Below are positions 11,422 to 32,652 of a stretch of 64,000 nucleotides of DNA, one piece after another. This DNA is from Pimelobacter simplex (GTDB lineage Bacteria; Cyanobacteriota; Cyanobacteriia; PCC-6307; Cyanobiaceae). The translations under genes and the position numbers were made by a program. Position 1 is the first letter of the stretch. Each line of letters begins with the position of its first letter. The notes under the pieces are model-generated. The model made no database searches. It had not been told where the DNA came from and was given only the letters and a program-made list of their open reading frames with translations. The stretch spans positions 21,077-85,076 of the forward strand of contig CALRIS020000012.1 of assembly GCA_943361795.1 (NCBI GenBank), given 5' to 3'.

Positions 11422-12870
11422 ATGGTCGCCCGCCGTGGCTCCCCACCCCTGCCTGGCGCGGCCAGCGGAGCCCCCGATGGGGATCGGCATGGGGATCGAA
11501 CCAGGGACCCGGAACAGCCCCCCCCTAGCCACGCCAAGCGGACGGACTCGGCGTTCTGGTGGCTGTGGGGCGGGCAGCTGGTTTCCAACCTCGGCACCCA
11601 GGTGAGCCTCTATGGCCTGGGGCTATGGCTCTTCCAGCTGCAGAACCACCTGCTGGATTTCGCCGCCGTGGCCATCGTTGTTCAGGTGGCCAAGATCCTG
11701 GCCCTGCCTGTGGTCGGACCCCGTTTACAGCAGTGGCGGCGGCGGCGCGTGATGGTGGTGGCCAATGGCCTGGGGGCCCTGGGCACCCTGGCGCTGGCGG
11801 CGCTGCTGCTGACGGCGGACCGGGGCCAGGGGGCCCCGGGACTGCTGGCCCTACTGCCCCTGCAGGGGCTGGCGGCCGCGGCCGAGGCCAGTTTGGTGCT
11901 TTGTTTTGCCAGCCTGATTCCCCTATTGGTGCCGGCGGGGGTGGCGCGCCACCGGGCCAATGGCCTGTTTGCCAGCAGCGATGGACTGGTATTGATTGCG
12001 GCGCCGTTTCTAGGGGCCTGGCTGGTGGGGATTGCCGGCCTGCGGGGCGTGCTGGTGCTCGATGGCCTGAGTTTTGGCCTGGCCATGGCCTGCGTGCTGC
12101 TGGCCCCCTGGCCCCAGGCAGCCCTGGGGCCGGCCTCGGCGCCAGGGCTGCAGGACAGGGGCCAGCCCGCAACGTCCTGGACCCAAGCGCCCAGCCGCTT
12201 TGGCCACGATTTGGCCGCCCTCTGGCGCGATGGGGCCCTACGGCGCCTGGCCCTGCTCGGCACGGCGATGGCCTTTGTCTACGGCGCCACCGAAGTGCTG
12301 TTCCCCGCCTGGGTGATCACGGCCCTTGGCCAGGAACGCCTCGGTGGCGCCCTGGTGGTGGGCGGCCTGGCCTACGGGTTGGGGCTGCGCGTTTGGCTGG
12401 CCCATTCCCCCAGGCTCTGGGGGCGGACCCTGGCCTGCTTGCTGGTGATCCAGAGCCTGGCCCTGATGGGGGCGGGGCTGGTGCTGTTTGAGGGCCTCAT
12501 CCCCTTCTGGTACGCAGGGCTGGGCTGCTTCACCCTGGCCTTGCCGATTTGTTTAGCGATCGTGCAAAGCCGTTGGCAACAGCTGGTGCCCGCGGCCGAA
12601 CTGCCGCGGCTCCTGGCGGTGCGTTACGCCCTGGAATGGCTGGCCCGGCTGGCGGCCTTCATTAGCAGCGCCCTGGTGGTCGATCAGCTGCTGGGGCCCG
12701 CCCTGGAATGGCCCCATTGGCCCGACTGGCTAGCCGCTGCCCTGGGAACGGGACCAGGGCGGCCCATGGCCGTGGCCCTCGGGGGCCTGGGCTGGGTGCT
12801 GCTGCTGGCCTTGGTCAGCCAATCGCTGCGGCCGCCGGGCCTGGGATCGCCAGGGCGGAACCAGGCTTAA
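11422..12870 (+). CDS. MFS transporter (EntS/MFS_3-like), about 12 TM; start uncertain
   Basis: Begins [27 protein letters not shown], followed by repeated hydrophobic helices. It lies divergent from cysS. The first roughly 45 codons are P/G/R-rich and may not be translated. Confidence 0.7.
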
Positions 12871-12938
12871 CGCGCCCATTGCACCCCAATTTTGAATTCG
12901 GGGGCCAGCCCTTGGCCCGCCAATGGGACCATGGCTCG

Positions 12939-14105: not shown

Positions 14106-14208
14106 TGGCTATTTGGTAAGCTCATTGCGCTCTGAATGGCTTAAAGCTAGGCCCAACAAGCTCTTGCAGGTTTTTCAATTTAGCTAGAGACAGCCCCAAC
14201 CCGCCACG

Positions 14209-17200
14209 TTGCCTCCGCCGATCACCCCTTCATTGACCCTCTCGCCGACAGTCCCTAGCCCCGAACCCATCGCGATTGTGGGGATTGGTTGTCGGCTTCC
14301 CGGTGGCATTGGCTCGCCCCAGGCCTTTTGGGACTTGCTACGCGAAGGCCGTGATGGGATTACGGACGTTCCCGCCAGGCGCTGGGACCTGGGCCAGCAT
14401 TTCGACGCCGATCCGCTCAAGCCCCTCAGCCAGCACGTGAGACGTGGCGGCTTCATTGAGGGCATCGACCAGTTTGATGCGGGCTTCTTCGGCATCTCGC
14501 CGCGGGAAGCCCTTTGCATGGATCCCCAACAGCGCCTGCTGCTGGAGGTGGCCTGGCGCGCCCTCGAGCATGGCGGCCAACCCCTCGATCGCCTGCGCGG
14601 CCAAGCGGTGGGGGTCTTCATTGGCATCTCCAGCCTCGATTACAGCTCCCTGCTCTGGGCCTCCAGCGAGCACTACGCCACCCCCGATAACGAGCCGTTC
14701 GTGCTGCCGGGCAACACGGGCTGCATCGCCGCCAACCGGATCTCCTACTTCCTGGATCTGAAGGGCCCCAGCTTCACGGTTGACACGGCCTGCTCCTCTT
14801 CGCTGGTGGCGGTGCATCTGGCCTGTGAAAGCCTCTGGCGCGGCGAATCGACGGCGGCCCTGGCCGGTGGCGTGCAGGCCCTGATCCATCCGGGCATCCA
14901 GATGAGCTTCTGCAAGGCCGGGCTGCTGGCGCCCGATGGACGTTGCAAGAGTTTTGACGCCAGCGCCGATGGCTACGTGCGCTCGGAAGGGGCGGGCGTG
15001 GTGCTACTTAAGAGACTCTCGGAGGCCCGCCGCTGCGGCGATCCAATCGTGGCCCTGATCCATGGCACGGCCGTCAATTCCGACGGCCGCAGCAATGGCA
15101 TGGCCGCTCCCAACCTCAAGGCCCAAATCGCCTGCGTGCGCCAGGCCTTTGCCCGCTCCGGCCTGGACCCGGCCGCCACTCAGTACGTCGAAGCCCACGG
15201 CACGGGCACCCGCCAGGGGGATCCGATCGAACTGCGGGCCCTGGGCACCGTCCTGGGCGAGGGTCGACCAGGCGACCAGCCCTGCCGGGTGGGCTCGGTC
15301 AAAACAAACCTCGGCCATGGCGAAACCGCTGCCGGGATCACCGGCTTGATCAAGGCGGCCCTGTGCATCCAACATCGCCAGATTCCGGCCAGCCTGCATT
15401 TCCGCACGCCCAATCCGGCGATTGATTTCGCCGGGCTGAAACTCCAGGTGCAAACGGCCCTAGAGCCGTTCCCAGCTGCAGACCAGCCGGCGGTGGTGGG
15501 GGTGAGTTCCTTTGGCTTTGGTGGCACCAATGCCCATGCCGTGCTGGCCGAGGCGCCAGCGGCGGAAGTCGGGTCCCCAGGCGCTGCTCCCCTTCCCCTC
15601 CAACTCCTAACCCTGTCGGCCCGCACTAGCGTCGCCCTAAGGGCCACGGCTAGCCGCTACTTGGAGCTGCTGCGCCAACGGCCGACCCTGGCCCTGGCCG
15701 ATCTCTGCGCCAACGCCAACCAACAGCGCACCGCCTTCCAGCAACGCCTGGTCTGCCTAGCCAGCGATCGGGCCGATCTAGAAGGCCAGCTGGAGGCCTT
15801 TGCCGGAGGCAAGGCCCCGGCAAAGGCGAGCACCGGGGCGCCCCAAGCCGCCCATTCCCCCCTGCAGGCCGTGGCCGGGCGCCGGCCGGGCAAGGTGGCC
15901 TTCCTCATCAGCGGCCAAGGCAGCCAGGAGCGGGCCATGGCCCGGGACCTCTATGGCCGCCATCCGGTGTTCCGGGAGGCCTTTGAGCGGGCCGCAGCCC
16001 TGGCGGACCCGAGCCTGGAGCTGCCCCTGAAGCGGGTGCTGCTTCCAGAACCTGGCCAGGAGCAGCAGGCGGCCCAGGCCCTGCAGCACACCGCCATCGC
16101 CCAACCGGCCCTGTTTGTGGTGGGCTACGCCCTCAGCCAGCTCTGGGCCAGCTGGGGGGTGCGGCCGGACCTGCTGCTGGGCCATAGCGCCGGCGAAGTC
16201 TTGGCAGCCCACCTGGCCGGGGTGTTTGACCTGGCCGATGGGATCCGGCTGATCACGGCCCGGGGCCAGCTGATGCAGGCCCTGCCTGCTGATGGGGGCA
16301 TGGTCGCCCTCCTGGCGCCCCTGGAGCAGGTGCAAGCCCTGATCGCCTCCGATTCCAGCCTGGGAGTCGCGGCCCTCAACGCTCCACGAAACACGGTGGT
16401 GTCGGGTCCCGCTGGCGCCATTGGGGCCCTGGTGGAACGGGCCCAGGACTCTGGCGTTGGCACGGCGCGCCTGCCCGTGGCCCATGGCTTCCACAGCCCG
16501 GCCATGGCCCCGATGCTGGAGGCCTTTGCCCAGCTCCTGGCCCAACTGCGCCTATCCCCGCCCGCCCGGGCCCTGGTCAGCAGCCTCAGCGGTGGGCTGG
16601 CCGGGGCCGAGGTCGCCGATCCGGCCTATTGGTGTGAGCAGGTGCTACGCCCGGTGCGGTTCGCCCAGGGGGTGGCCACCCTCCAGGCCCAGGGGGCCCG
16701 CCTGTTTGTCGACCTGGGCCCCAGGCCCAGCCTGATTACCCTGGCGAAGCAAACCCTCGCCCCAGGCCCCGGCCCCGGCCAGCCAGGCAAGGACCCGGGC
16801 CAGCCAGTCCCAGGTCAACAAGCCCCAGGCCAGGAGCCCTTGTTCCTGCCCTCCCTGGTGCCCGCGCAGGACGACTGGAGCGTGATCCTGGCCAGCCTGG
16901 CCCAGCTGCATCTGCGCGGCCTGGCCATCGATTGGCGCTCCTTCCATGCCCCCTTTGCCCAGCAACGTCTGACCTTGCCGGGCTACCCCTTCGAGCGCCA
17001 ACGCCATTGGTGGCCAGCCGGTAGGGGCCAGGTCCCCGGCGCCCACCGCTGGCTCGACCATCTGGGCCTGGCCCCGCTGGATCCGCTCCCAGGGGAGCCA
17101 GTCTTTCCTGGGCCCAGCTCGCTTGCACCTGCCCAACCGGGAGCCAGCGCACCGATCCAAGCAGGGGTCCCCCGGGCTGGCCTTCAGGCCAGCAACAACG

Positions 17201-20200
17201 GCTTTGACGGCGGTCTCCAGCAAGCAACCCCAAGCCCGGCCCAAGCCGCTGGCGTCCCAGGCCCTGGAGCCGTTCCGGGCCCATCGCTGGCCCAAGGATT
17301 CGCTGCCAAGGAAGGGGATGGGTGGGATCGGGTGGGTCTTGCTCCCCCGGCCCAGGACTCCCATGGATCGGACGTCATTGAGTCGGGCGTCAATGGCTCG
17401 GGCCTCAATGGATCGGGCCACAACGAACTGGGACCCCAGGCAAGCAACGAAGCAACCCGTGCCACGGCGCCAGCCCGGATTCTCCAAAAGCTGGACCTAC
17501 CCCCAGGGCGGGTCCACTACCAGGTCACCCTGGACCCCAGCCAGCAGGCCGACCTGGCCGACCATGCCATCCGCGACCAACCGGTCTTTGCCGCGGCCGG
17601 TTTCCTGGTGCTGGCGGCCCAAGTAGCAACCCAGGAAGGGCTGGCCCTGGGCTTTGGTCCCCTCAGCCTGGAGCGCCCCCTCCGCCTGGGCGCGGGCCCC
17701 CGGCAGTTGCAACTGGTGCTGGAGGAAGGAGCGCTGGCCTTCCACAGCCGCAATCCCGGCGAACCGGCCGGCGGCTGGACTAGCCATGGCCGCCTGGGCC
17801 TGGTCCAGGCCCCTGGGCCGATCCCCCCTGGTGGTGCCGGACTGGACCCGGGGAGCGCCCCCTTCGTCCCAGGCCTGCCCCCAGACGGCGCCGAAACCCT
17901 GGACCCCACAGGCTTCTACGCAGCCCTAGCCCGCTGTGGCCTGACCTATGGCCCCCGCTTTCGGGGCCTCCACCAGGTGCAACGCCAGCAGGGCCAGGCC
18001 TGGGCTGAACTCAGGCGCCCCGCCGCTGGCGGCGCCGAAGGCCTGCTGGATAGCTGCTTCCAACTGGTGGCCGCCAGCCTGGATCCGGAGGCTGCTGGCG
18101 GACAACTCTTTTTACCTGTGGGCCTGGAGGCCCTGGCCCTCGCACCGGGGGAGTGGCCGGAGCGATTCAGCTGCGAGGTGCGGCTGCAGGCCAACCTGGA
18201 GCCGGCCCAGGTCCAGGCCGACCTGGTCTGGCATGCAGGCGGCCACCTGCTGGGTTGGATTCGGGGCTTCCGCCTGCGGCGCCTGCCGCGCCAGGCGGTG
18301 GACTGGATGTTCCCAGCAGCCCAGCTGGCCCCCCCTGAGCCCGCGCCCGATCCGGCCAGCTGGCTGATCCAAAGCGACTGGGAACCGCTGGGCTTGGATT
18401 CGGCCCCCACCGTTGCAGCCCACGAGTCGGCTGCAGCCCTACCCCCAACCCTGCCGCCCCCAACCCTGCCCCTCGGCGATCGGCCCCTGCTGATTGGCGC
18501 GGGCCAGCACCAGGCCCGCGCCTTTGCCGCCTGGGCCAGCGACCAGGGCCAACCGGCCAGGCGCCTTGGCTTTGGCGACCCCCTGCCCGCCGGCAACGGG
18601 CCGGTGCTGGTCTGGCCGGATCCGGACGCGGCCGAACCCCTGGCCCTGGCCAACCACCTGCTGGCCCTGGTCCAGCAGCTCCAGGCCCCCCGGAACGCCA
18701 ACAACGCACTTCCCAACCAGGCCGCTGGTTCTGGGGCCCCAGGCCGAGCGCAACCCCGGCCCCTATGGCTCGTGCTCGAGGGCGACGCAGCCTGGAGCGG
18801 GGTGCTGGCGGGCTTTGCCCAAACGGCCGCCCTGGAAACCCCCCAGCTGGCCTGGACCCAACTGCACCTCCCCGCCGACCCCCAGCACCAGCCCCAGGCC
18901 AGGGACTGGGACCAGCTCTGGGCCCAGGCAAGCAGCGAAGCGAGCCTGCTCTGGCGTTCGGGCCAAGCCCATGGCCAACGGCTGCAACGGCTGGCGCCTG
19001 AACGCTTCCGCTTTATTAGTAACGACCCCGGCCGCCTCGAAGCCCTGGTGCGCCAACCCCTGGCGCCAACCACCCTGGTGAATGGCGAGCTGGAGCTGGC
19101 CGTGGAGGCCACGGGCCTGAATTTCCGCGACGTGCTCAATGCCCTGGGCCTGCTGGCGGCCTACGGGGAGGAGCTGGGCCTGGCCGAGGGGGCCCAGGTG
19201 CCCTTTGGCGGCGAGTGCGTCGGCCGGGTGGTGGCGGTGGGACCCGGCGTGGATCCGGCCCTGGTCGGCCAGCGGATGCTGGCGGCCCTGGCCGTGGGCA
19301 GCCTGGCCAGCCATGTCAGCTGCCGCGCCGAGCTCTGCGTCCCCCTACCAACCGGGCTCGATAGCGAAACCGGCGCCAGCCTCAGCACGGTCTTCCTCAC
19401 GGCCCTCTACGGATTGGTGCACCTGGCCCAGCTCCAACCGGGGGAAACGGTGTTGATCCATGCGGGCGCCGGCGGCGTCGGCCAGGCGGCCCTGCAGGTG
19501 GCCCGCCGCTGCGGTGCCCGCATCCTGGCCACGGCCAGTGGGCCCAAACAACAGGGCCTGCTCGACCAGGGGGTGGAGGCCGTGTTCGACTCCCGAAGCC
19601 TGGCCTTTGCCGAGCAGGTGCGCTCCCACACCGCGGGCAAGGGCGTCGACGTGGTGCTCAACAGCCTCAAGGGGGACTGGGTTGATGCCAGCTTCCAGGC
19701 CCTTGCTCCAGGCGGCCGCTTCATCGAACTGGGCAAGATTGAGATCTGGAGCCGGGCCCAGGCCCAGGAGCGCCGCCCCGATGCGGCCTACCTGCCCTTC
19801 GACCTGCTGGAGGTGGCCGCCGCCGAACCCCAACGGGTGCGCCAGCTGCTCATCGACTTTTTGGCAGACCTCGCGCAGGGCAGTTTCAAGCCCATTCCCA
19901 TTGAGGTGTATCCCATCTCGGCCGTGCCGGACGCCTTCCGGCTCCTGGCCCAGGCCCGGCACCGGGGCAAGGTTGTGGTGCGCCAGGCGGATCGGCCCAC
20001 ACCCCTGGCGATTCGTCCCCAGGCCACTTACCTAATCACAGGTGCCCTGGGGGGCATTGGCCTGCGCCTGATCGACTGGCTAGTCGAGCGGGGGGCCAGC
20101 TCCCTGCTGCTGGTCAGCCGCTCGGCCGGGTCCCCGTCGCCTGAGGTCAAGCACCGGCTGGAAGGGCTCGAGGCGCGGGGCATCCGTTGCCAGCGGGTGG

Positions 20201-22527: not shown

Positions 22528-23873
22528 CCCTGACGCCGCTAGCGGCGCCCCCATGGGGGCTAGTGATCACGGCCGGAGTGCCGATCCGCTTGCCCGCAGA
22601 TGGCGACCTGGCCTCCCCATGGGCGTTGGTCCTGGCCTTGGCCCTACTGCTCAGCTTAGCCGGGCAGGCCCTCCTCACCGGCTGGTTTGCACTTCGGGTC
22701 CGCCGGTTGGGGCAGCAGCGCAGCCGCTGGCCCGAGGAACCAGCCGGGGGCTGGCCGGTGGCGGAGGTGGTGCTCTGCCTGCGGGGCGCCGATCCCAGCC
22801 TGGCAGGGGCTTTGGCAGCCCTCGCCCACCAGCGCTACCCGGGCCCCTGGCGCCTGCAGCTGGTGGTGGATTCCCAGGCCGATCCGGCCTGGGCCGTGGC
22901 GGAAGCGAGCCTGGCAGCCCTGGAGGCCAGCGGCCAGGCCAGCTGGCAGGCGGCCCAGCAGGGGCCCCTGCTGGGCCGGCCCCAACGGGGCTCCCTCAAG
23001 GGCGCTTCCCTGCGCCAGGCCTTTGCCCACCTGCATCCCGCCACGACCCTGGTGGCCCTGATCGATGCCGATGCGATCGTCTCGCCCGATTGGCTGGCGG
23101 ACCTGGCCCGGGCCTGCAGCCAGCCCGGGGTCGGTGCCGTGTCGGGCAATCGCTGGTACCAGCCCCAGGCAGGCAGCCTGGCCGCTCAGGTCAGGGCCGG
23201 CTGGAATGGGGGCGCCCTGGTGCTGATGACCCTGCTCGGGATCCCTTGGGGGGGCTCCCTGGCGGTGCGGCGCCAGGTGATCGATGCCGGTGTCTGGAGT
23301 GAACGGCTGATCAGCAGCCTCTGTGAAGACACCTCCCTGGTCCAGCCCCTGCGCCAGCTGGGCTGGCGCTACGCCTTCCGGCCCGAACTGATCGCCCTTG
23401 ACCAGGACGACAGCATGGCCTTGTCCGATCTGGCCCCCTGGATCGGCCGGCAACTACTCACCGCCCGGCTGCACCATCCGGCCTGGCCCCTGGTTGCCCT
23501 CCATGGCGGCGGCAGCGCCCTCCTGCTCCTGGCTGCCGCCGCCTGGCTGTTGCTGGGCCATTCCGGCCTTCTTGCCGCAGCCCTCGCTCTCTACGAACTG
23601 GGCTGCATGGGGCTCTTGCTAGGGATCGAAGCCACGGCCCTCAGGGCCCTGGCCAAACCTGGGGACGAAGCCATACCCCGGCCGCTAGCGCCCCTGGGGC
23701 GCCGGGCTTGGCAGTGGCTGAAGCACCTGCCCGTGACCCAACTCATCTATGCGCTCGCCTTCTGGCATGCCTGCTGGGATCGCCGGGTGGAATGGCGTGG
23801 CGTCACCTACCGGGTGCTGGGCCACCGCGAGCCTGGGGGACCGGGGGTGGAAGCCCTGGGCTGGGAGGAATGA
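22524..23873 (+). CDS. Membrane glycosyltransferase family 2 (GT21/ceramide-glucosyltransferase-like layout)
   Basis: N-terminal TM segment, then VEVVLCLRGADPSL, LIDADAIVSPDW (DxD), GNRWY and CEDTSL. The ATG overlaps the PKS stop (ATGA at 22524-22527). Confidence 0.75.
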   Translation: MTLTPLAAPPWGLVITAGVPIRLPADGDLASPWALVLALALLLSLAGQALLTGWFALRVRRLGQQRSRWPEEPAGGWPVAEVVLCLRGADPSLAGALAALAHQRYPGPWRLQLVVDSQADPAWAVAEASLAALEASGQASWQAAQQGPLLGRPQRGSLKGASLRQAFAHLHPATTLVALIDADAIVSPDWLADLARACSQPGVGAVSGNRWYQPQAGSLAAQVRAGWNGGALVLMTLLGIPWGGSLAVRRQVIDAGVWSERLISSLCEDTSLVQPLRQLGWRYAFRPELIALDQDDSMALSDLAPWIGRQLLTARLHHPAWPLVALHGGGSALLLLAAAAWLLLGHSGLLAAALALYELGCMGLLLGIEATALRALAKPGDEAIPRPLAPLGRRAWQWLKHLPVTQLIYALAFWHACWDRRVEWRGVTYRVLGHREPGGPGVEALGWEE

Positions 23874-23882: not shown

Positions 23883-24569
23883 TCACCGGGCCAGCATCAG
23901 CCGCCTTAGCACCACCATGGACTGGCGCAGGTTGGCCTCATTGAGGTCGTCGTAGGTCGGGCGCAAAAAAGCGGGCAGGTCGGGCTCTAGGGCGATCTGA
24001 TGGTCGACAAGCACCCCGCCGCGCACCCGGGTCAAGCTCCATTGCCCCTGGAGGCTGAGGATGCGCTCGCCGCGGAGCAGGCGATAGCGCATCCAGCGGG
24101 GCGCCCTTTCCTCCACAGCCAGCACAACCTTGATCGGCAGACCGAAGGTGGACGGGGCTTGGTAGGTCTGGGCTAGCTCCAGCTGGCTGCCCTGGCGGTT
24201 GAGCACCTTCGCCTGCCTGATGTCGGGCATCAGGCCTGCCATCGCCTCGTAATTGGTCAGCACGGCCCAGGCCCGGGCCTGGGTCACGGGCACCAGCATC
24301 CTTGCCCTGTAGTGGCCCTTGCTGCCCGTCAGCACCGGATCGGCCAGCGCCGGTTGGACCGGCCGATCCGGGCCGCTGTCCTGGGCGAGGAGCTGGGCTG
24401 GGGTCGCCAGAGTTAGGCCCACCGCAGCGCCTAAGGTGAGAACCTGATTGAGCAACCCATGGCAGGGCCTAGCTGGCTGGCTGCCTAACGCCGATGAGCC
24501 CCCCATGACCTGGCATTTGCGGCGCATCAGGCCATTGTGATGGATTGGGAACCGGGACAAGATCCCCAA
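23883..24569 (-). CDS. Secreted or membrane-anchored SRPBCC (START / polyketide_cyc2-like) lipid-binding protein
   Basis: N-terminal hydrophobic signal-like segment LLNQVLTLGAAVGLTLATPAQLLAQ, then an SRPBCC-like core ARMLVPVTQARAWAVLTNYEAMAGLMPDI ... LQGQWSL. More likely starts are ATG 24527 or 24506. Confidence 0.6.
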   Translation of the reverse strand: MGILSRFPIHHNGLMRRKCQVMGGSSALGSQPARPCHGLLNQVLTLGAAVGLTLATPAQLLAQDSGPDRPVQPALADPVLTGSKGHYRARMLVPVTQARAWAVLTNYEAMAGLMPDIRQAKVLNRQGSQLELAQTYQAPSTFGLPIKVVLAVEERAPRWMRYRLLRGERILSLQGQWSLTRVRGGVLVDHQIALEPDLPAFLRPTYDDLNEANLRQSMVVLRRLMLAR

Positions 24570-25853
24570 AGCAAGGCACCTTTAAAAGCATCAACGGCAG
24601 CCGTTTCCCCTGCAGCCGTTTCAAGCCCCCATTCCACCCCTGTCGATCCTGCCACCGCCGTTGACTGGAGTGCTGGGGCCGCAGCGGGAGAGCCCCAATT
24701 TGATCTGAAGCGACGGCTCTACTTTTTAAGTGGTTTTGATCCCCGCGGCGCCTCTTTCTATTTCCGGCTCATGGGCCAGGAAGTGGAGCGCCAAAATGCC
24801 AAGTCACCCATGGGCGAAGGGACGCCCATCCAGCTGGTCAGACGCAGGCAGGAAGGGGATCGACTGGTGAGCCGGTGGCGGATTCAGCGATCCCAACCCA
24901 ATAGCTCTGGCCGTTCCAGCAGCCACGAAATTGGCTTTTTGCACTGGGATGACATTGCCCGCAGCCACTGGCCCAGGCGCTCCTTGGCCATGGTCGGTGA
25001 GATCGCCGAGGTCTACCGCTGGTACCTGCTGCAAGGGGGCTTGCTACGGATTGCCCGTCTCTGCCCCGGGGTGGCCCTCTGCGGCGCCTACCCAGCGCTT
25101 TTCACCGCCCTGGCGGTGGGAGTTGCCTTGCTGGCTGGCGCTGGCCTGGGAGCGCTGACCTACGGGGCCCTGCCAGGGCCCCTAGCCCTGGGAGCCGCAG
25201 TCTTGGTAGCCGCGAGCAGCACCTGGCTGCTGCTGCTCGCGGCGTGGGCCCTGGCCGATCGGCTCGGGGTGGTGTGGCTCTGGCGCTCGATCCGCTTTAC
25301 CCACCGGCTCGGTCAAGCCCGCGATGGCGACCTGCGCGCCCGGGTCCGGGAGTTGGCCCGGCGGATCCTGGACCTAGAAGCCGAAGCCCCGGCCGAGTCG
25401 GTGCTGCTAGTGGGCCACAGCTCAGGCTCCTTTGTGATGGCCATGCTGGCGGCCGAGCTGCGCCGCCAGGACCCTGCCGCTGCCATGACAAACCGCTTAA
25501 GCCTGCTCAGCTTGGGCCAGAACCTGGCCAACCTGGCCGTCTATCCCGGGGCCCAGGCATTCCACGCCGATTTGCAGGAGTTGGCCCGGGAGCCGCGCCT
25601 GCCCTGGCTCGATGTCACCAGCCACGATGACCTCCTCTGTTTCGCTGGCGTCGATCCCTACCGCAGCTGCGACGTTCCCGCCCCAGCGGGCCCGGCCTAC
25701 CCAGCCCTGCAGCTGGTGGCCCTGGCCGAGCCGAGGGGCTGGCTTGATCGACTGGCCCTGGCGTTTCAGCAGTTTGATCTCCACTTCCATTACCTGCGCC
25801 AGGCTCCTGCCAGCCACGGCTTTGATCCCCTCAGCCAGCTGCTGAAACCATGA
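24540..25853 (+). CDS. Unclassified membrane-anchored alpha/beta-hydrolase-like protein (GHSSG nucleophile elbow)
   Basis: RRLYFLSGFDPRG N-terminal strand, a hydrophobic hairpin of 2-3 helices (LCPGVALCGAYPALFTALAVGVALLAGAGLGAL ... STWLLLLAAWALA), then VLLVGHSSGSF, later SHDDLL and HFHY (Ser-Asp-His order). Start uncertain. Confidence 0.5.
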   Translation: MDWEPGQDPQSKAPLKASTAAVSPAAVSSPHSTPVDPATAVDWSAGAAAGEPQFDLKRRLYFLSGFDPRGASFYFRLMGQEVERQNAKSPMGEGTPIQLVRRRQEGDRLVSRWRIQRSQPNSSGRSSSHEIGFLHWDDIARSHWPRRSLAMVGEIAEVYRWYLLQGGLLRIARLCPGVALCGAYPALFTALAVGVALLAGAGLGALTYGALPGPLALGAAVLVAASSTWLLLLAAWALADRLGVVWLWRSIRFTHRLGQARDGDLRARVRELARRILDLEAEAPAESVLLVGHSSGSFVMAMLAAELRRQDPAAAMTNRLSLLSLGQNLANLAVYPGAQAFHADLQELAREPRLPWLDVTSHDDLLCFAGVDPYRSCDVPAPAGPAYPALQLVALAEPRGWLDRLALAFQQFDLHFHYLRQAPASHGFDPLSQLLKP

Positions 25854-27529
25854 CCTCCCGTCCACCAGCAGGCCCCATCCCACCCGAGGAAGGCACGGCC
25901 AGCTCGGCCAGCCCAGACGCCCAGCTGGACGCAAGGGAACCGATCTGGCCCCAACCCCAACCCTTCACCGCCAACCTGCTCAAGCGCTTCAGCCGGGGTT
26001 TGGGCTCCTGGTTTGGCCTGCTCAACGAGTGGGATTTCCGGATCGGCATTGGCAGCACCAACGTCTTGGGCCTGGAGATGGTGCTGGTCAACCGGCCGGA
26101 CCTGGTGCGTCAGGTGCTGGTGGAGGAACCCGAGGCCTTCCCAAAACACCCCTACACCCAGTGGATCCTGGAGCCCCTGATTGGCCAGGGCCTCTTTGCG
26201 GTGAATGGGGCCGAGTGGCAGCGCCAGCGGCGCCTGGTTGATCAGGCCCTCCAGGTGACCCAATTGCGACGGGTCTTTCCCCTAATGCAAGGGGCGGTGC
26301 AGACCATGCTGGAACGGCTTGAGAACCAAGGGTCCGCCGCAAGCCCTAGGCCAGCACCAGGCCTTGGCGCAGGCCAGGCAGACCTGACAGACCAGGCAGG
26401 CCAAGCAGGCCAGGGCAAGGAAGCGGACCTCTGCTTCGATGCCCAGGAGGCGATGAGCCTGGTGACGGCCGATGTAATCGTGCGCACGATCCTCTCGAGG
26501 CCCCTCGCCCCCTGCGAAGCCCGGACCATCTTTGCCGCCTTTGCCCGCTACCAACGCCGGGCCAGCCTGGTGATGGTGTTGCGCTTTCTGCGCCTGCCTA
26601 AACCCTGGCTGCAGCGGCTGCTGGGCGCCGATGCCGGACTGATCCGCAGGTGGATCGCCGCAGCCATCAACGAACGCTCCCGCTCCCAACCAGGCCTTGC
26701 CACTGGTACCAACCCCGTTGCCGGGCACCAGGACCTGCTTTCGGCCCTAGAGCGGGCCCAAGATCGACCAGCCACCCCACCCAGTAGGGGCCCAGCCCAG
26801 GCGGCTGAAGGCCCAGCAGAACCGCCTGATGACCCACAAGCAGGGATGGCTGAAAGCAGCGGGGGCTTTAGCCAGGACGAACTGGTCGACCAGGTGTGCG
26901 TACTGTTTCTTGCTGGCCATGAAACCTCCGCAAGCGCCCTAGCGATGGCCTGCTATCTGCTGGCCCGCTACCCAGAAGCCCAGGCCCGCTTTGCCAGGGA
27001 AATTAAGCAGGTCCGTGGGGGAAGTCCATCCCCGGAATTCGCCCCAAGCCCGCACCGCCCCCTGGATTACGAGGACCTGCGCGGCCTGCCCTATGGCGCC
27101 GCACTGCTTCAGGAGACCCTGCGCCTCTACCCTCCCCTGAGCTTTTTCATCCGCGAAAGCCAGGCTGCCAGCCAGCTGGGCGAAAGCCGCTGCCCGATGG
27201 GGGCGCTGCTGGCGATTTCCCCCTGGGTGATCCAGCGCCACGAGCAGCACTGGAGCGAGCCCAATCACTTCCGGCCAGAACGGTTCCTGGCCGATCAGGC
27301 CAGCGATGGGGACAAACAATGGGCACGGGACGCCTTCCTGCCCTTTGGCCTAGGGCCACGCAAGTGCCCTGGGGCCGCCTTTGCCCTGCAGGAAGCCCTG
27401 CTGGTGCTCGCGGAGCTGGTTAGCCGCTATGAACTCCTGAGCGAGCCCGGCCAGGAGCCAGAGCTAGTGGGCAACCTCACCCTGCGCTCGCGCAATGGCG
27501 TGCCGTTAAGACTGCGGCGCCGTCCCTAA
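25850..27529 (+). CDS. Cytochrome P450 (559 aa, with low-complexity insertions)
   Basis: I-helix LFLAGHETSASAL, ExxR ETLRLYPP, and heme loop FLPFGLGPRKCPGAAFA. The ATG overlaps the upstream stop (ATGA at 25850-25853). Confidence 0.9.
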   Translation: MTSRPPAGPIPPEEGTASSASPDAQLDAREPIWPQPQPFTANLLKRFSRGLGSWFGLLNEWDFRIGIGSTNVLGLEMVLVNRPDLVRQVLVEEPEAFPKHPYTQWILEPLIGQGLFAVNGAEWQRQRRLVDQALQVTQLRRVFPLMQGAVQTMLERLENQGSAASPRPAPGLGAGQADLTDQAGQAGQGKEADLCFDAQEAMSLVTADVIVRTILSRPLAPCEARTIFAAFARYQRRASLVMVLRFLRLPKPWLQRLLGADAGLIRRWIAAAINERSRSQPGLATGTNPVAGHQDLLSALERAQDRPATPPSRGPAQAAEGPAEPPDDPQAGMAESSGGFSQDELVDQVCVLFLAGHETSASALAMACYLLARYPEAQARFAREIKQVRGGSPSPEFAPSPHRPLDYEDLRGLPYGAALLQETLRLYPPLSFFIRESQAASQLGESRCPMGALLAISPWVIQRHEQHWSEPNHFRPERFLADQASDGDKQWARDAFLPFGLGPRKCPGAAFALQEALLVLAELVSRYELLSEPGQEPELVGNLTLRSRNGVPLRLRRRP

Positions 27530-27575
27530 CTAATCACCTAGCAGAAGATATTAATGTCAAATTCGCATAAGCGAG

Positions 27576-28868
27576 TTGAACCTTAAGGTCAAAGTGCTAA
27601 TATCAATTAAGATTTGCCTAGCTCCACGAGTGGTTCATCCAGCCAAAGGGCCCTCCCCAGCCTTCAGGCCCGTTGCGGAGCGTTTTGGGATCGGCTGGCT
27701 CACGGCAGCCCTGCTGGTGGCCCCCCAGCTGGCACCGCTGGCAGCCCTGGCCGCTCCCCCTCCAGCTGCCGCCAAGCGTTCAACACTGGTGCCGCCGGCC
27801 CAGCGGGCAAGGGTGACCTACGACACCTACCTGCTGGGGCCCGGGGACAGCCTGCAAATTGAACTGGAGAACATCCCCGAGCTCTCTGGCACCTTCACAA
27901 TTGGGCCCGATGGCACCCTATACCTACCTCGCCTGCGAGCTCTCTTCGTCGATGGGCTAACCATTGAGGAGTTGCGCTATTTTCTTACGCAACAGTTCAA
28001 GCCATATATCAAGAATCCAGAAATCTACATTAGGCCACTTGCCTACCGTCCAGTAAGGGTTTACGTTGGCGGGGAGGTCAATCGTCCAGGCTATTACACT
28101 CTCTCACAAGACCAAGCAATTCAAGCACTCAGCGAATCAAATAACAAGCAATATCTATCAAGCTCAGTAAATATGAACAGTACAAGCATTGAGGCAAGTA
28201 GGTCAACATCCTACAGCCCTAGCGCCAACAATGCGGGAGCAACATTTAATCCCTATGTCGTTCCGACAGTCTACGATGCAATCCGCGCCTCCGAAGGGGT
28301 AACACCCTATTCCAATCTTTCGGACGTCTTCATTACCCGCAAACAACCCTTGAGTAGCGGCGGCGGCAAGGCCAGGGCAAGCGTGAATCTTTTGAGCATG
28401 ATCACCCATGGAGACGAGTCACAGAACGCAAGACTTTTCGACGGAGATATTCTTTATGTTAACAAAAGTCCAATTGTCCTACTAGATCAATTACTTGCAT
28501 CTGCACGTACGAACCTAAACCCTCAATACCTCAATGTGTTCATCACCGGCAGGGTTAAACTACCTGGCAACACCGTCCTCCCTCAGGGCTCATCGCTGAA
28601 CCAAGCTCTTACTAGCACCGGGGTTCAACTGCTCCGTGGCAAAGTAGAATTTGTACGCATTAATCGCGATGGCAAGCTAGATCGACGACTGTTTAACTTT
28701 AATCCAAGCCTACCAATCGATTCAGCCTCCAATCCAGTATTGATGAGCGGAGACATTATAAGGGTTCAAGATTCCGGCGTTTCCGCAGCAACCAGCCTAC
28801 TCAGTGAGCTAACCGGCCCATTTGTAGGTATTTACTCCGTCTACAGTCTCTTTGGAGGTATTAAATAA
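27576..28868 (+). CDS. Polysaccharide export protein, Wza/OPX-like (Poly_export + SLBB)
   Basis: YLLGPGDSLQIELENIPELSGTFTIGPDGTLYLPRLRALFVDGLTIEELR, later GRVKLPGNTVLPQGSSLNQAL (SLBB-like). TTG start is uncertain. Confidence 0.75.
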   Translation: MNLKVKVLISIKICLAPRVVHPAKGPSPAFRPVAERFGIGWLTAALLVAPQLAPLAALAAPPPAAAKRSTLVPPAQRARVTYDTYLLGPGDSLQIELENIPELSGTFTIGPDGTLYLPRLRALFVDGLTIEELRYFLTQQFKPYIKNPEIYIRPLAYRPVRVYVGGEVNRPGYYTLSQDQAIQALSESNNKQYLSSSVNMNSTSIEASRSTSYSPSANNAGATFNPYVVPTVYDAIRASEGVTPYSNLSDVFITRKQPLSSGGGKARASVNLLSMITHGDESQNARLFDGDILYVNKSPIVLLDQLLASARTNLNPQYLNVFITGRVKLPGNTVLPQGSSLNQALTSTGVQLLRGKVEFVRINRDGKLDRRLFNFNPSLPIDSASNPVLMSGDIIRVQDSGVSAATSLLSELTGPFVGIYSVYSLFGGIK

Positions 28869-30590
28869 GTGATGAACCCATCCCTACAACCTCCCAGCCA
28901 GCCCATGCCAGCTGATGACGAAATTGACCTTGGCCAACTAGCGGCAAGCCTGGGGCGTCGCCGCCGGCTGATTGCTGCTGTCACCGGTGGAACGGTTGTC
29001 CTCACAGGCTTATTCACGCTCCTGCAGAAGCCTGTTTGGGAAGGGGAATTCCAAATTGTGTTGGCTCGTCAGGATAGTGGTGGTGGCAGTCGTTTAGCCC
29101 AACTCGCCGCTGCCAATCCCATGTTGGCCGGGTTAGCCGGCATCGGCTCCGGTGGCGGCAAAGACAGCCTGGAAACCGAGGTCAAGGTTCTTGGTAGTCC
29201 ATCCGTACTCAAACCAATCTTTGAATTTGTCCGTGCTTCCAAGCGTGAAGCAGGTGTTGACGTTGATCAGCTCCGTTACGACGGGTGGGCAAAATCCAAT
29301 CTTGATATCAAGCTAGAGAAAGGAACATCCGTTTTAAATATCTCCTACCGGGACAACGATAAGCGTTTGATCCTGCCAGTGATTGGAAAAATCTCCAAGG
29401 CTTATCAAGATTATTCAGGCAGGGATCGCCGCCGGGATATCTCTCAGGCCGTAATCTATTTAAATGGCCGCATTGCTCAAATCGGTCCCCAAGCTGAAGT
29501 TTCGATGCGAAGTGCCCAGGCCTTTGCCCTTTCAAATGGCCTGGGAATTCAAGATGGAATGCCACCTGCGACCGCCAGCTCTACCGGTGATGGGGGTGGG
29601 TCATCAGAAGCGAGTTCTGGATCTGTTGAGAGCAATCGACTGACGTCCCAGGCCCAGGTCATTACCTTGCGGCAACAAATACGCAATGCGCAAGCCGCTG
29701 GCGCCGAAGTGCTCTTCCAGGCTCCCCTGCTAGAGGCCAACAAGGATCTCTACAAGCAGTATCAAAGCCTGGAAGCAACCCTGGCTGAACAACGCAGCCG
29801 CCTTAGGGAAAAAGATCCAATCATCGTGGGGCTGCTGCGTCAAAGAAGTGCGTTGATCAATACCCTAAATCGGGAAACAATCTCCCTGCTACAGGGTCAA
29901 CTAGCATCCGCAAATGCCCGGCTTCAAGCCGCATCTCGCCCCAAAGAAGTAGTGCTGCAGCATCGCCAGTTAGTACGTCAAGCCCTGCGAGACGAAAAAA
30001 CCCTGATTGAACTTGAAAACCAATTACAATTGGCTCAATTAGAGCAAGCTAAGCAGTCAGATCCCTGGGAACTCATTTCAAACCCCACCCTGCTGGATCG
30101 CCCGGTAGCCCCCAAGAAAGGTCGCAATCTGGCCTTGGGGTTGTTGGCCGGTTTGGTGCTGGGAAGCGGGGCTGCCCTGGTGGCGGAACGGCGTACCGGT
30201 CGGATCCATGGCTCCGATGAACTGGCGTCGCTCTTGCCTGGTTCCCTTCTGGCCGTCCTCGAAGTGGATCAGCCAGCCACTTGGAGCCAGCCGCTGCAGC
30301 TTCTCAGTAGTGGACCCCTAGCTGGCGCCAGCACCCTTGCCCTAGTGACGATTGGCTTGGCCACGGACGTGGCCGAGCCGATTGCCCAGGCCCTCCAGGT
30401 CGCTTCCGGTCGGCCCGTGCTCTGCAGCAGTGATCTGGTGGCAACCCGGAGTTGTGATGCCCAGGTACTTCTGACCAGCCCCGGAGCCGCTGAACGGGAC
30501 CAGTTGCAACGGCTGCGGCGGGATCTGGAGCTGCAAGGAAGCCCCGTGGTCGGCTGGCTGCTGCTGAACGACCGCCGGCCCCATGGCTGA
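28869..30590 (+). CDS. Polysaccharide co-polymerase (Wzz/PCP-2-like) with a degenerate kinase-like C-terminal domain
   Basis: Wzz N-domain DEIDLGQLAASLGRRRRLIAAVTGGTVVLTGLF, a long coiled-coil region, a second TM LALGLLAGLVLGSGAALVA, and a C-terminal domain lacking a Walker A motif. GTG/ATG at 28869/28872 directly abuts the wza-like stop. Confidence 0.7.
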   Translation: MMNPSLQPPSQPMPADDEIDLGQLAASLGRRRRLIAAVTGGTVVLTGLFTLLQKPVWEGEFQIVLARQDSGGGSRLAQLAAANPMLAGLAGIGSGGGKDSLETEVKVLGSPSVLKPIFEFVRASKREAGVDVDQLRYDGWAKSNLDIKLEKGTSVLNISYRDNDKRLILPVIGKISKAYQDYSGRDRRRDISQAVIYLNGRIAQIGPQAEVSMRSAQAFALSNGLGIQDGMPPATASSTGDGGGSSEASSGSVESNRLTSQAQVITLRQQIRNAQAAGAEVLFQAPLLEANKDLYKQYQSLEATLAEQRSRLREKDPIIVGLLRQRSALINTLNRETISLLQGQLASANARLQAASRPKEVVLQHRQLVRQALRDEKTLIELENQLQLAQLEQAKQSDPWELISNPTLLDRPVAPKKGRNLALGLLAGLVLGSGAALVAERRTGRIHGSDELASLLPGSLLAVLEVDQPATWSQPLQLLSSGPLAGASTLALVTIGLATDVAEPIAQALQVASGRPVLCSSDLVATRSCDAQVLLTSPGAAERDQLQRLRRDLELQGSPVVGWLLLNDRRPHG

Positions 30591-32652
30591 ACCGTTGCCC
30601 TTGCGATCCCGGCGCTGGGCCTCGGCCCTTGTCGTGGCCACGGTGGCCCTTCAACCGGTGCAGGCCCAGCCCAGCTGGCAGCCCGTTCCGCCGCAGCAGC
30701 GCCCTGGCGGTGAGCCCACCGCAGGCCTGCCCCAGTGGCAACGGATCACCCCTGTTGATTCGATCCCTGGAGGCAGGCAAGGGACGCCAATCTGGCAGCC
30801 CCTGCCTGGGGCACCAGGCCTTTCACGGCAGCTGGTCTGGGAGCCCGTAGCCCCAGTAGCCGCAGTAGCCGCAGAGACCAAACTAGGACTCCCTAGCCCT
30901 GGAGCCAAGCCTGGAAGTGCCCTGCCCCAGACCTGGACCCAAACAACCGCAGCAGATCCCCGTCTGGGCGGGTCGGAGAGTCAGGTCAAACCCATGGCCA
31001 GGCCCCCCACAAGCCCGGCGGAAGCCCAGGCGCTCCTGGATGGCCTAAAACCCACAGCCGCCGATTTCAGCCCCCAGCTCCGCCTGGGAGAGGCCGTGCC
31101 CACGGCCCAGCAACTGTCCGAGCAACAAAGTCAGCTGTCCTTCTTCCAGCTGGCACCCTTGGGTGGTGCCAAACAGGGAGGTGGCGGTGGTACGGGCAAC
31201 CAGAATTACGCAGCAAGGCTGGATGCGGGCTTAACCGATCACATTCAAATATCGGCATTTTATAGCGTTGCTGATGATCCCCTCTATGCACCGATCACGG
31301 GCAAGACCATTCAGCCCGCCAATTTCTGGCAAAGTTATGGAGGAGCCTTGCAATGGCGCCTACTCGGTTCAAACACCACCGCCTGGACGTTAGCCCTAGC
31401 GGGATCGTTGGAGGCTTGGACAGTGGGCAGCGGAGGCTGCGACTCTTTCTCCTGCAAGGGTCAAAACAATGCCAGTCAAAATATATTCAACAACTCTGGC
31501 AGTCGGGTACAAACCACCAATGTTGTGGGGTCCCTGTCCCTGCCGATTAGCTGGCAAGCGTTGCCAACTTTGGCCCTAACCTTCACCCCTGGAGTGAGCT
31601 TTTTGCCGAGCAGCCAGGGGGGAGGGCAAGGTGGCAGTGGGCCCTTCTATGGCACAAACGCAAGTGTGGCAGCTGGAGCAAGCTGGCGGCCGATCCCAAG
31701 CCTCACCCTGTTTGGCTCCGGCCTGATTCCCCTGGGCCCTGGTAATAATAGTTTCAATGGTAATTTGGTCTTCGCCCGAGTTCCAATCCTCACAACTGGA
31801 ATCAATTGGTCCCTCAATCCCCGCATTGCCCTAGAAGGCCAGCTCACCAATGGTTGGGGGGCCACGCCGGCAACGGCCATGCTGGCCCTTCCCTCCGAGA
31901 ATCAACTGGGCTATTCCGGCCGCTTTATTTTTACTCCCGGCGCCCTTGACACACCGCAACCAGCCCTGACTCCGCGCCAGCAGTCCCTTGCCTTGGGGGG
32001 GCTTACTGTTAATACGGCCCTAGTGCCCCCAAGCGGCACCACAGAGCTCTGGGTGAATGGCGATAACCAGGGAAATGGCTTCGGCTATATCGGCTATTCG
32101 CTCTCCAATAGTTTCCAGCTGGATGTCTATAAAGGAGGGGTCTTCAACAACGTAGAACCCACAAATACCCTCGCTACAACCTATGCCAGTGATGGCGGCT
32201 GGAATTACCGCTTTGGGGGCAAGGCGATCGTCATGAGCCAACTGCGGGGGGCGCCATTTTCCCTCGGCGGTCGCATCAGCCTGGGCCGAAATACGGACCC
32301 ATCGAGTTACCAGGGCTATGTGTTCGCCGAGTCGATCTCCACCTGGGAGGCCAATTCCTGGCTGGCCTTTAACCTCAACCCCAAGCTGGCCTGGAGCGGT
32401 ATTAGCACCCCCTGGGCGGTGGGAGTGAGTGCCAACATTCAATTGGGTCGCCACTTCCAGCTGATCCCGGAGGTGAATGTGGTGGGTTCTGAGATCAATG
32501 CCACCAATGGAACCCTGGCCCTGCGATGGCTAACCACAAGCAGCACCAATCTGGAAATTTATGTCAGCAATGCCGCGGGCTTATTTGACATCGGTCAGCT
32601 ACTAGACAACAGCAACATGCGGGTAGGTGGCCGCCTTTTATTCAGCTTCTAG
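30583..32652 (+). CDS. Putative outer-membrane beta-barrel protein with a Pro/Trp-rich N-terminal region
   Basis: Signal peptide RSRRWASALVVATVALQPVQAQ, alternating beta-strand-like sequence, and terminal ...GGRLLFSF (C-terminal Phe typical of OM barrels). It overlaps the upstream gene by 8 nt. Confidence 0.55.
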   Translation: MAEPLPLRSRRWASALVVATVALQPVQAQPSWQPVPPQQRPGGEPTAGLPQWQRITPVDSIPGGRQGTPIWQPLPGAPGLSRQLVWEPVAPVAAVAAETKLGLPSPGAKPGSALPQTWTQTTAADPRLGGSESQVKPMARPPTSPAEAQALLDGLKPTAADFSPQLRLGEAVPTAQQLSEQQSQLSFFQLAPLGGAKQGGGGGTGNQNYAARLDAGLTDHIQISAFYSVADDPLYAPITGKTIQPANFWQSYGGALQWRLLGSNTTAWTLALAGSLEAWTVGSGGCDSFSCKGQNNASQNIFNNSGSRVQTTNVVGSLSLPISWQALPTLALTFTPGVSFLPSSQGGGQGGSGPFYGTNASVAAGASWRPIPSLTLFGSGLIPLGPGNNSFNGNLVFARVPILTTGINWSLNPRIALEGQLTNGWGATPATAMLALPSENQLGYSGRFIFTPGALDTPQPALTPRQQSLALGGLTVNTALVPPSGTTELWVNGDNQGNGFGYIGYSLSNSFQLDVYKGGVFNNVEPTNTLATTYASDGGWNYRFGGKAIVMSQLRGAPFSLGGRISLGRNTDPSSYQGYVFAESISTWEANSWLAFNLNPKLAWSGISTPWAVGVSANIQLGRHFQLIPEVNVVGSEINATNGTLALRWLTTSSTNLEIYVSNAAGLFDIGQLLDNSNMRVGGRLLFSF

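Follow-up and report, generated by a model that had tools for sequence, protein, structure and literature searches.

What would a picocyanobacterium make with a reductive polyketide synthase (PKS) that lies between two lipid-type glycosyltransferases (GTs) and close to an outer-membrane export machine? The question is raised by positions 11422-32652 of a 64,000-nucleotide stretch of contig CALRIS020000012.1 (assembly GCA_943361795.1, filed as Pimelobacter simplex and placed by GTDB among the Cyanobiaceae), which was analyzed as a whole and is called the window below. The cluster comprises a core, namely a major facilitator superfamily (MFS) transporter, a GT-B glycosyltransferase, the PKS, a membrane GT2, a secreted SRPBCC protein, a membrane-anchored Ser hydrolase here termed X438 and a cytochrome P450, followed by an export module with an outer-membrane polysaccharide export (OPX) protein, a polysaccharide co-polymerase (PCP) and a predicted large outer-membrane β-barrel here termed Y689. 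We conclude that this is an orphan cluster, a PKS–glycolipid system with a novel part list. Its biosynthetic reading is well supported; the overall picture, in which the cluster with its exporter makes a PKS-derived alkyl glycolipid of the cell envelope, strikes us as evenly balanced between right and wrong. We favor it because the PKS domains and motifs are intact, with mycocerosic acid synthase (MAS) as the best architectural match and a terminal reductase that matches MxaA; because the solved relatives of both GTs act on lipid acceptors; because the core synteny is kept, with the exporter adjacent in most informative loci and a reduced variant still holding the PKS, GT21-type GT and MFS together with the exporter; because the window offers the exporter no other polysaccharide genes; and because X438–P450 pairs elsewhere lie beside genes for KpsC/KpsS-like proteins, a GT28-like GT and OPX.

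The window genes were defined with a map of open reading frames (ORFs) and Pfam/NCBIfam profile scans. The PKS is a single, fully reducing module with no loading module: the ketosynthase (KS) begins at residue 19 and is followed by acyltransferase (AT), dehydratase (DH), enoylreductase (ER), ketoreductase (KR), acyl carrier protein (ACP) and terminal reductase (R) domains, which bears out the architecture proposed in an earlier note on this DNA. The motifs of every domain could be read: DTACSS, HGTGT and NLGH in the KS; GHSAG in the AT, plus HGFH at the specificity position (malonyl-like); His1119 and Asp1281xxxGln as the DH catalytic residues; HAGAGGVG in the ER; TGALGGIG, LED (B-type) and Tyr2145 in the KR; LGLDS in the ACP; and TGSTGFLG and YSQTK in the R domain. 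Alignment with 25 orthologues confirmed that these catalytic motifs are intact in the window and kept across the family, with exceptions among relatives in the AT. Among NCBIfam models, the protein scored 1202 bits with type I PKS, 887 with Pks2 and 384 with PfaA; among solved structures in the PDB, CurL is the top KS-AT match and MAS the top match to the whole architecture. By these domains and matches, the window PKS is predicted to be a single-module, fully reducing synthase of the MAS/fatty acid synthase-like kind with reductive release.

The AT (window 15900-16920) takes several states across the orthologues (the loci in this series being L004, L009, L011, L024, L026, L028, L031, L035, L036, L041 and L046). 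Cyanobium PKSs carry a canonical AT with GHSxG and SHAFH; in close relatives of the window the domain is decaying, with GHGAG in L004 and L011, ALGFH in L009 and GEGAG in L035; and the marine Synechococcus and Prochlorococcus orthologues, of 2175-2207 aa, have no AT domain. Since the AT is lost or decayed in these orthologues, an AT in cis appears to be dispensable, which implies loading in trans, presumably by FabD.

Long low-complexity insertions rich in Pro, Gly and Gln were seen in the AT-DH linker of the window PKS (residues ~850-1090; window 16750-17480) and in its KR (~2070-2110; 20400-20530). The P450 likewise carries low-complexity insertions at residues ~160-200 and 280-335 (window 26330-26850), and together such stretches lengthen the window proteins by 100-600 aa relative to their orthologues.

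The R domain matches the thioester reductase model TIGR01746 at 2.8e-80 and NAD_binding_4 at 6.7e-56, and its closest solved relative is MxaA, followed by the carboxylic acid reductases (CARs). MxaA reduces by four electrons, yielding a primary alcohol, and the reductive release proposed earlier for this domain thus has an alcohol-forming enzyme as its nearest structural precedent. R domains of the PKS thioester-reductase family are capable of both two- and four-electron reductions, and the reaction might stop at the aldehyde, with oxidative chemistry by the P450 or an amination to follow; the product would then not be an alkyl glycoside and the GTs would use another acceptor. The CARs, which form aldehydes, do match the R domain, if more weakly, and the X438–P450 pair occurs without a PKS in most bacteria. 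Yet MxaA is by far the closer relative (7e-68 against 2e-20), no aminotransferase lies among the cluster genes and two lipid-type GTs require a hydroxyl acceptor, so that we regard such a non-alcohol fate as very improbable.

Both GTs are similar to enzymes whose acceptor is a lipid hydroxyl, as judged from their profile and structure-database matches, in keeping with the earlier proposal of glycosylation by one or two GTs. The GT-B reaches 28.9 bits with Pfam MGDG_synth (cutoff 25), matches GT4 and GT28_C weakly and gives 5.8e-15 with the NCBIfam diglucosyl-diacylglycerol synthase model; its top PDB matches are 9wde, a processive diacylglycerol (DAG) β-glucosyltransferase (3e-8), and then MGD1. 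It is conserved just upstream of the PKS across loci, and since the conserved protein begins at ATG 12939, this is its likely start rather than 12708. The GT2 scores 43 bits with Glyco_transf_21 (cutoff 21.7) and weakly with NCBIfam HpnI (3e-18), matches none of the NCBIfam equivalog models and has ceramide glucosyltransferase as its sole, weak PDB relative (1e-3). With a DAD motif and 3-4 transmembrane (TM) segments, it is a membrane-bound GT-A enzyme resembling GT21, and it sits after the PKS in most cluster-bearing loci. That position and the missing equivalog match were weighed against the alternative that the GT2 is simply the housekeeping MGlcDG synthase.

The MFS protein may flip the glycolipid across the inner membrane or export it. 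In Prochlorococcus, its gene directly precedes that of the GT-B in L024, L026, L028, L036 and L046; in L031 and L041 the MFS is upstream and the GT-B has no match; and in Cyanobium FACHB-13342 it is relocated yet retained, as the first gene after the P450. The SRPBCC protein reaches 30.6 bits with Polyketide_cyc2 (cutoff 27.4), carries at its N-terminus a hydrophobic, signal-like stretch that ends in LLAQD and keeps its opposite-strand orientation in almost every locus. A PDB sequence search returned nothing for the MFS (LtaA included) or the SRPBCC. The MFS is weakly similar to drug/H+ antiporters (NCBIfam), and a type I PKS with a P450, GTs and an MFS is a typical layout of natural-product gene clusters; with the patchy picocyanobacterial distribution of the cluster (43 species matches), these features would fit a diffusible secondary metabolite, i.e., a glycosylated reduced polyketide secreted by the MFS, for instance as an allelochemical or surfactant, rather than an envelope component. 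However, a single fully reducing module yields a plain alkyl chain and not a decorated polyketide, both GTs are of the membrane-lipid kind, the cluster also includes genes for a lipid-binding SRPBCC that is secreted and for a hydrolase embedded in the membrane, and its neighbors are consistently envelope export genes. We consider a diffusible product improbable.

X438 and the P450 open a view beyond the picocyanobacteria. X438 has TM segments within residues 176-249 by sequence analysis, and homologue alignments reveal an invariant S295 (in GHSSG), D359/D365 and H416, a triad kept in distant relatives as well. An AlphaFold2 (AF2) model (pLDDT 78) predicts an α/β-hydrolase core into which a long hairpin of TM helices (177-283) is inserted. 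For this model, Foldseek returned only weak, generic-fold matches to lipases, esterases and type II thioesterases. The P450 has intact AGHETS, ETLR and FGLGPRKCPG motifs, and its nearest solved relatives, CYP97A3, CYP46A1 and CYP4B1, are lipid or isoprenoid hydroxylases. Close-range X438 homologues, all annotated as hypothetical, occur only in picocyanobacteria. A profile search over 1.84 billion representative proteins extended the family to 1027 clusters at E <=1e-3, with 300 at <=1e-30, and eighty metagenomic loci with homologues were fetched (GC 0.38-0.75; distant loci L051-L132). A P450 adjoins the X438 homologue in 65 of the 82 distant loci, rising to 30 of the 32 with 6 kb or more of flanking sequence, and is 31-40% identical to the window P450 over its full length. 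Thus, X438 and the P450 form a two-gene module that is widespread among bacteria.

The company kept by this module elsewhere is informative. The distant pair loci hold no homologues of the window PKS, Wza, PCP or Y689, with one weak GT2 match. Among the 32 well-flanked loci, KpsC/KpsS-like Capsule_synth genes were found in 9 and a GT28/EryCIII-like GT in 5, and one distant pair locus with capsule genes additionally carries an OPX gene. The pair looks like a portable lipid-tailoring unit, recurrently tied to capsule glycolipid machinery, to which the picocyanobacteria joined a PKS. Some distant loci have a second X438 paralogue after the P450.

We scanned one genome per GTDB species with the X438 alignment, which identified 43 loci in picocyanobacteria, and compared these by tblastn with the window proteins. 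The X438 identity to the window is 70-89% in freshwater 'Synechococcus sp. UW140' metagenome-assembled genomes (MAGs), ~53% in Cyanobium, ~49% in single-amplified genomes (SAGs) of marine Synechococcus and 41-47% in Prochlorococcus SAGs. The UW140 MAGs and Cyanobium are thus the closest relatives of the window, in accord with the picocyanobacterial origin suggested in the earlier note. The core order MFS, GT-B, PKS, GT2, SRPBCC (on the minus strand), X438, P450 is kept wherever the contig permits, and the set travels together in Cyanobium, Synechococcus and Prochlorococcus, as would be expected of the functional unit that had been proposed. The closed genome of the cultured Prochlorococcus MIT1341 (an LLVII-grade strain) carries the cluster, and Y689 homologues are present in Synechococcus MIT S9504, S9508 and S9509, in UW179A and in Prochlorococcus MIT 1307.

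Adjacency of the exporter was scored in the 31 informative loci in which 1 kb or more of sequence follows the P450. The export module abuts the core in 26 of them, despite an inversion: in 21, Y689 directly adjoins the P450 in convergent orientation, usually followed by the PCP and OPX genes, and in five, all from the UW140 group, OPX, PCP and Y689 are co-directional as in the window. The five loci with no exporter at this position are two core-only genomes and three of a rearranged type, MFS-SRPBCC-X438-P450-GT-B-PKS. A reduced variant in Synechococcus sp. AH-736-G20 (L050) has a PKS, fragmented in the assembly, a GT21 and an MFS adjoining an export side that consists of Y689, a DSPc phosphatase, a PCP of 807 aa that includes a kinase-like AAA_31 domain, and an OPX; it has no P450, X438 or SRPBCC.

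Two MAGs each hold two diverged copies of the cluster (L008 and L009 in LE-02apr19-114; L019 and L032 in ELA057). In the rearranged type (L022 and L023 among these loci), the GT2 was not seen in the fetched stretch. The double copies and the rearranged type could reflect either a true paralogous cluster or a mixture of strains in the bins.

The export module itself combines familiar and unfamiliar parts. The OPX protein (~385-430 aa) aligns with D1-D3 of the solved Wza (PDB, 4e-16) and has three SLBB-like repeats; its C-terminal ~30 aa are hydrophobic and highly conserved from Cyanobium to Prochlorococcus (LNELTGPFVG[VI]YS[VL]YSLF; window 28780-28868). From its sequence, this tail could be a Wza-D4-like membrane helix or an element that docks to the barrel. 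The PCP has TM segments at 34-53 and 420-440 and a C-terminal domain with no recognizable kinase. Y689 has a signal peptide, its N-terminal ~140 aa are Pro-rich and disordered, and it ends in a C-terminal Phe (LLFSF); its AF2 model (pLDDT 73) is all-β over residues 183-689, with ~24-25 strand segments. The top 50 Foldseek matches of this model consist of TonB-dependent receptors (22 strands) and an usher (24 strands), at a TM-score of ~0.2, and AlgE, PgaA and BcsC are absent from these 50.

Several observations weigh against the reading of the cluster as a glycolipid factory with a dedicated exporter. On the biosynthetic side, the window AT carries HGFH and not HAFH, and this domain is decaying in close relatives; Pfam/NCBIfam scans found neither a fatty acyl-AMP ligase (FAAL) or other AMP-ligase nor a loading module among the cluster genes; and sequence alone does not fix the chain length, the iteration or the starter unit. 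On the export side, we know of no OPX/PCP system documented for cargo other than polysaccharides or polymers, and profile scans of the 64-kb window found neither Wzx nor Wzy, no initiating phosphoglycosyltransferase and no ABC transporter of the KpsMT type. Core and exporter are separable: in the core-only Cyanobium FACHB-13342 and T1B-Tous, the P450 is followed by unrelated genes and no exporter, and in the export-only Cyanobium Morenito 9A2 (L048), Y689 and OPX genes occupy the cysS-dxr site with no PKS. There, rmlABCD separates dxr from cysS, and cysS is followed downstream by Y689, OPX, a phosphatase, an ABC gene, a GT2 and GLF (UDP-galactopyranose mutase). The site downstream of cysS-dxr (window 8235-11400) appears to be a variable cell-surface island. 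Further, polysaccharide genes lie on the far side of the exporter in ~7 of the 13 relatives examined, in addition to L048; these genes include UDP-glucose dehydrogenase, epimerases, GDP-mannose dehydratase, Bac_transf, EpsG and an ABC transporter, of which Bac_transf, EpsG and ABC genes do adjoin the exporter in some relatives. Composition points the same way, with a GC of 0.47-0.55 over Wza-PCP (27500-30000; 31000-35000 was also flagged) against 0.64-0.71 in the core, and so do the PCP alleles, which among close relatives are either ~90% (89-93%) or ~60% identical, with flanking genes at 75-87%. The two PCP allele classes suggest the signature of a recombining surface-polysaccharide cassette. 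In FACHB-13342, a 575-aa protein after the MFS was considered as a Y689 homologue and rejected on comparison as not homologous.

Taken together, the export-side observations are what one would expect if core and exporter were merely co-located, with the core glycolipid leaving through the MFS and SRPBCC or staying in the membranes and the exporter serving a separate capsule or exopolysaccharide pathway in a shared cysS island; polysaccharide genes past the exporter in L014, L024, L028, L029, L033, L046, L047, L049 and L050 fit this explanation too. Against it stand the adjacency in the 26 loci, which spans Cyanobium to Prochlorococcus and survives the inversion, and the reduced variant L050, which still joins PKS, GT21 and MFS to Y689, PCP and OPX. 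Moreover, the exporters of the window, of L010 and of L031/L041 have no polysaccharide genes nearby, and profile scans of the whole window found no others for its exporter to serve. We consider co-location alone somewhat unlikely, if a possibility to be taken seriously. The Wza/PCP/barrel route of the earlier note therefore fares unevenly: the adjacency and the lack of other polysaccharide genes in the window speak for it, and the separability, the far-side polysaccharide genes and the distinct GC speak against it, which leaves the route as a plausible, unproven means of exporting the glycolipid.

On the preferred reading of an exported alkyl glycolipid, the proteins can be arranged in a putative pathway. 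First, the MAS-like PKS would use malonyl units to build or elongate a long, saturated acyl chain, with iteration and the starter as presumed elements, and in the AT-less orthologues FabD would load malonate in trans. Second, by homology to MxaA, the R domain would release an aldehyde and then a primary (fatty) alcohol. Third, the P450 with its obligate partner, the Ser hydrolase, may hydroxylate the chain, with acyl transfer or hydrolysis as a possible additional activity. Fourth, the GT21-like GT2 would glycosylate the lipid alcohol at the membrane, in the manner of ceramide glucosyltransferase, and the UgtP/MGD1-like GT-B may add one or more further sugars. Fifth, the MFS would flip or export the glycolipid, in parallel with the YpfP/LtaA system, and the secreted SRPBCC may ferry the lipid through the periplasm. 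Finally, PCP, OPX and barrel would carry the glycolipid over the outer membrane; in an alternative closer to known OPX biology, the cargo would be a glycan primed on or anchored by the glycolipid. Of this scheme, the domain identities, the intact motifs and the synteny are observed, and the substrates, the chain length, the site of hydroxylation and the exporter cargo are inferred. A more specific version, in which the product is a previously unrecognized envelope lipid class of picocyanobacteria, low-light Prochlorococcus and marine Synechococcus included, and is a P450-hydroxylated, long-chain alkyl (diol) glycoside that anchors or primes a surface glycan and is delivered via a new ~24-stranded PCP-OPX translocon, is speculative and in our view unlikely.

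How does this arrangement compare with known systems? The closest parallels in cyanobacteria are the hgl islands for heterocyst glycolipids (HGs) and the HG-analogue islands of non-heterocytous cyanobacteria, which combine a PKS-made chain, reductive release, glycosylation and dedicated export (PMC11804610). The likeness lies in a cyanobacterial PKS-made long alkyl chain, release by a thioester reductase, an envelope glycolipid and clustered dedicated export. However, the Hgl synthases are multi-protein enzymes of the polyunsaturated fatty acid (PUFA)-synthase type (HglE/C/D, with a chain length factor and tandem ACPs), whereas the window has one MAS/CurL-like polypeptide; HglB (HglB/HetM, ACP-thioester reductase) is a separate protein, whereas the window reductase is fused to the PKS; and export proceeds by DevBCA/HgdBC ABC systems with TolC, in contrast to the MFS, OPX, PCP and barrel of the window, where profile scans of 11.4-32.7 kb found no ABC transporter or membrane fusion protein. 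The window further has the GT21-like and UgtP-like GTs, the P450–hydrolase pair and the SRPBCC. Thus, of three hallmarks of hgl systems, the locus shows release by a thioester reductase and lacks the other two, the PUFA-type PKS and DevBCA/TolC; the contrast with multi-protein Hgl synthases and DevBCA/TolC, drawn already in the earlier note, is correct (PMC11804610).

The mycobacterial MAS, Pks2 and Pks5 share the KS-AT-DH-ER-KR-ACP order in one module, and their products feed surface glycolipids. MAS-like enzymes use methylmalonyl-CoA, priming by FadD and release by an acyltransferase. The window AT is instead of the malonyl type (HGFH; SHAFH in Cyanobium), or absent in orthologues, and not of the methylmalonyl YASH type, and the cluster has no FAAL and has its reductase fused to the PKS.

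On the export side, the nearest likeness is to composite OPX/β-barrel translocons such as EpsY/EpsX, ExoA/ExoB, WzaB/WzpB and VpsN/VpsM (PMC9601211, PMC9603273, PMC12819527), with which the window shares a PES-motif OPX, a PCP and a syntenic outer-membrane barrel of unknown family with a signal peptide. The known barrels are 18-stranded and AlgE-like, whereas the Y689 model has ~24 strands and a 140-aa disordered N-terminus; the known OPX proteins are short (<=280 aa) with no domain spanning the outer membrane, whereas that of the window has ~400 aa and a conserved tail; and the neighbors in the window are a PKS/GT set and not a Wzx/Wzy or ABC pathway. Two further systems offer partial analogies. 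In X438–P450 homologue loci of other bacteria, Capsule_synth (KpsC/S-like) and OPX genes adjoin the pair, which recalls the group 2 capsules. There, KpsS and KpsC build a poly-Kdo linker on lyso-phosphatidylglycerol, and this inner-membrane glycolipid anchors or primes a polymer exported via PCP and OPX. The link consists solely of gene neighborhood in 9 of the 32 distant loci; the window itself lacks genes for KpsC, KpsS, KpsMT and Kdo, and its lipid would be PKS-derived and not a phospholipid. In Staphylococcus, YpfP (UgtP) and LtaA synthesize and flip a glycolipid anchor, and the adjoining UgtP-like GT-B and MFS genes of the window resemble this pair; however, the window MFS matches no solved MFS, the acceptor is presumably not DAG and the host is a diderm.

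Full-text literature searches on picocyanobacterial PKS and glycolipid clusters found no paper on this cluster and no published product, in agreement with the earlier view that it is not a characterized system. The widespread picocyanobacterial PKS family CF-20 (Calteau et al. 2014) was considered and is different, its clusters being single genes of ~3 kb.

Picocyanobacteria dominate the phytoplankton by numbers in the oceans and in many lakes, and grazing, phage adsorption, aggregation and sinking all depend on their cell surface. If the glycolipid reading is true, a dedicated, vertically retained PKS cluster would bring a further lipid class, and possibly a biomarker, to organisms regarded as PKS-poor. 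On the more specific version, with a hydroxylated alkyl glycoside as glycan anchor or primer, these abundant phototrophs could be a neglected source of long-chain alcohols and diols in glycosidic linkage, both in lakes and in the ocean, and the Ser-hydrolase–P450 pair would be a general capsule-lipid-tailoring module. The orthologous PKSs offer a natural series from cis-AT to AT-less, and the cluster points to a cyanobacterial OPX system with an unusually large barrel. Direct tests are feasible in cultured carriers (Prochlorococcus MIT1341xe and MIT1307xe; Synechococcus MIT S9504/S9508/S9509 and 8F6; Cyanobium usitatum Tous), for which the core-only and export-only genomes serve as natural comparators.

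The layout of the locus is collected in the table below. All gene identities and coordinates given for 11422-32652 in the earlier note were reproduced from the ORF map and profile scans; its count of eleven genes, ten on the plus strand, needs correction to ten genes, nine on the plus and one on the minus strand, its own list also naming ten.

Genes of the cluster and the adjacent AraC-type gene, with positions counted from the first letter of the window
Feature	Position	Strand	Basis and remarks
MFS transporter	11422-12870	+	Pfam MFS_1 2.6e-15; ~10-12 hydrophobic segments
GT-B glycosyltransferase, MGDG synthase/UgtP(YpfP)-like	ORF from 12708, likely ATG 12939, to 14105	+	MGDG_synth, GT4, GT28_C
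Type I PKS, 2772 aa	14209-22527	+	KS-AT-DH-(psiKR)-ER-KR-ACP-R; Pfam and NCBIfam
Membrane GT2, GT21/HpnI-like	22524-23873	+	Best Pfam match Glyco_transf_21
Secreted SRPBCC/START-like lipid-binding protein	23883-24569	-	Pfam Polyketide_cyc2
X438, membrane-anchored α/β-hydrolase-fold Ser enzyme (GHSSG)	24537-25853	+	No Pfam family
Cytochrome P450, CYP4/CYP46/CYP97-like	25850-27529	+	Pfam p450 3.4e-60
OPX (Wza-family) export protein	27576-28868, true start probably 27594-27717	+	Poly_export, SLBB_2, SLBB
PCP (Wzz/GNVR)	28869-30590	+	Pfam Wzz 5.4e-10, GNVR; TIGR01005 eps_transp_fam
Y689, predicted large outer-membrane β-barrel, 689 aa	30583-32652	+	No Pfam family; AF2
AraC-type helix-turn-helix protein	32803-33705	-	Weak Pfam HTH_18, HTH_AraC; possible regulator, cluster membership uncertain

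The tight gene junctions reported earlier are all present: an ATGA at 22524 joins the PKS stop to the GT2 start, a second at 25850 joins X438 to the P450, the TAA of the OPX gene is immediately followed by the GTG of the PCP gene at 28869, and the PCP and Y689 genes overlap by 8 nt at 30583. Through its ATGA, the P450 gene is translationally coupled to X438. Promoter and terminator scans of the window gave counts at chance level and are thus uninformative on co-transcription, and the window scan found no tRNA genes marking an island boundary.

The flanks consist of housekeeping genes, with dxr and cysS upstream and the AraC-like gene, a P-type ATPase, CDF, GDT1 and mfd downstream, and the remainder of the 64-kb window is likewise made up of housekeeping genes. 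The AraC-like gene is kept beside the cluster only in L002/L007 of the UW140-like group. Two ~300-aa proteins encoded downstream of the cluster proved unrelated to one another. Lastly, the longest cysS ORF (9915-11597, minus strand) overlaps the MFS start by ~175 nt; as its tRNA-synthetase domain starts at residue 91, the true cysS start probably lies downstream, which would make cysS and the MFS gene divergent neighbors.

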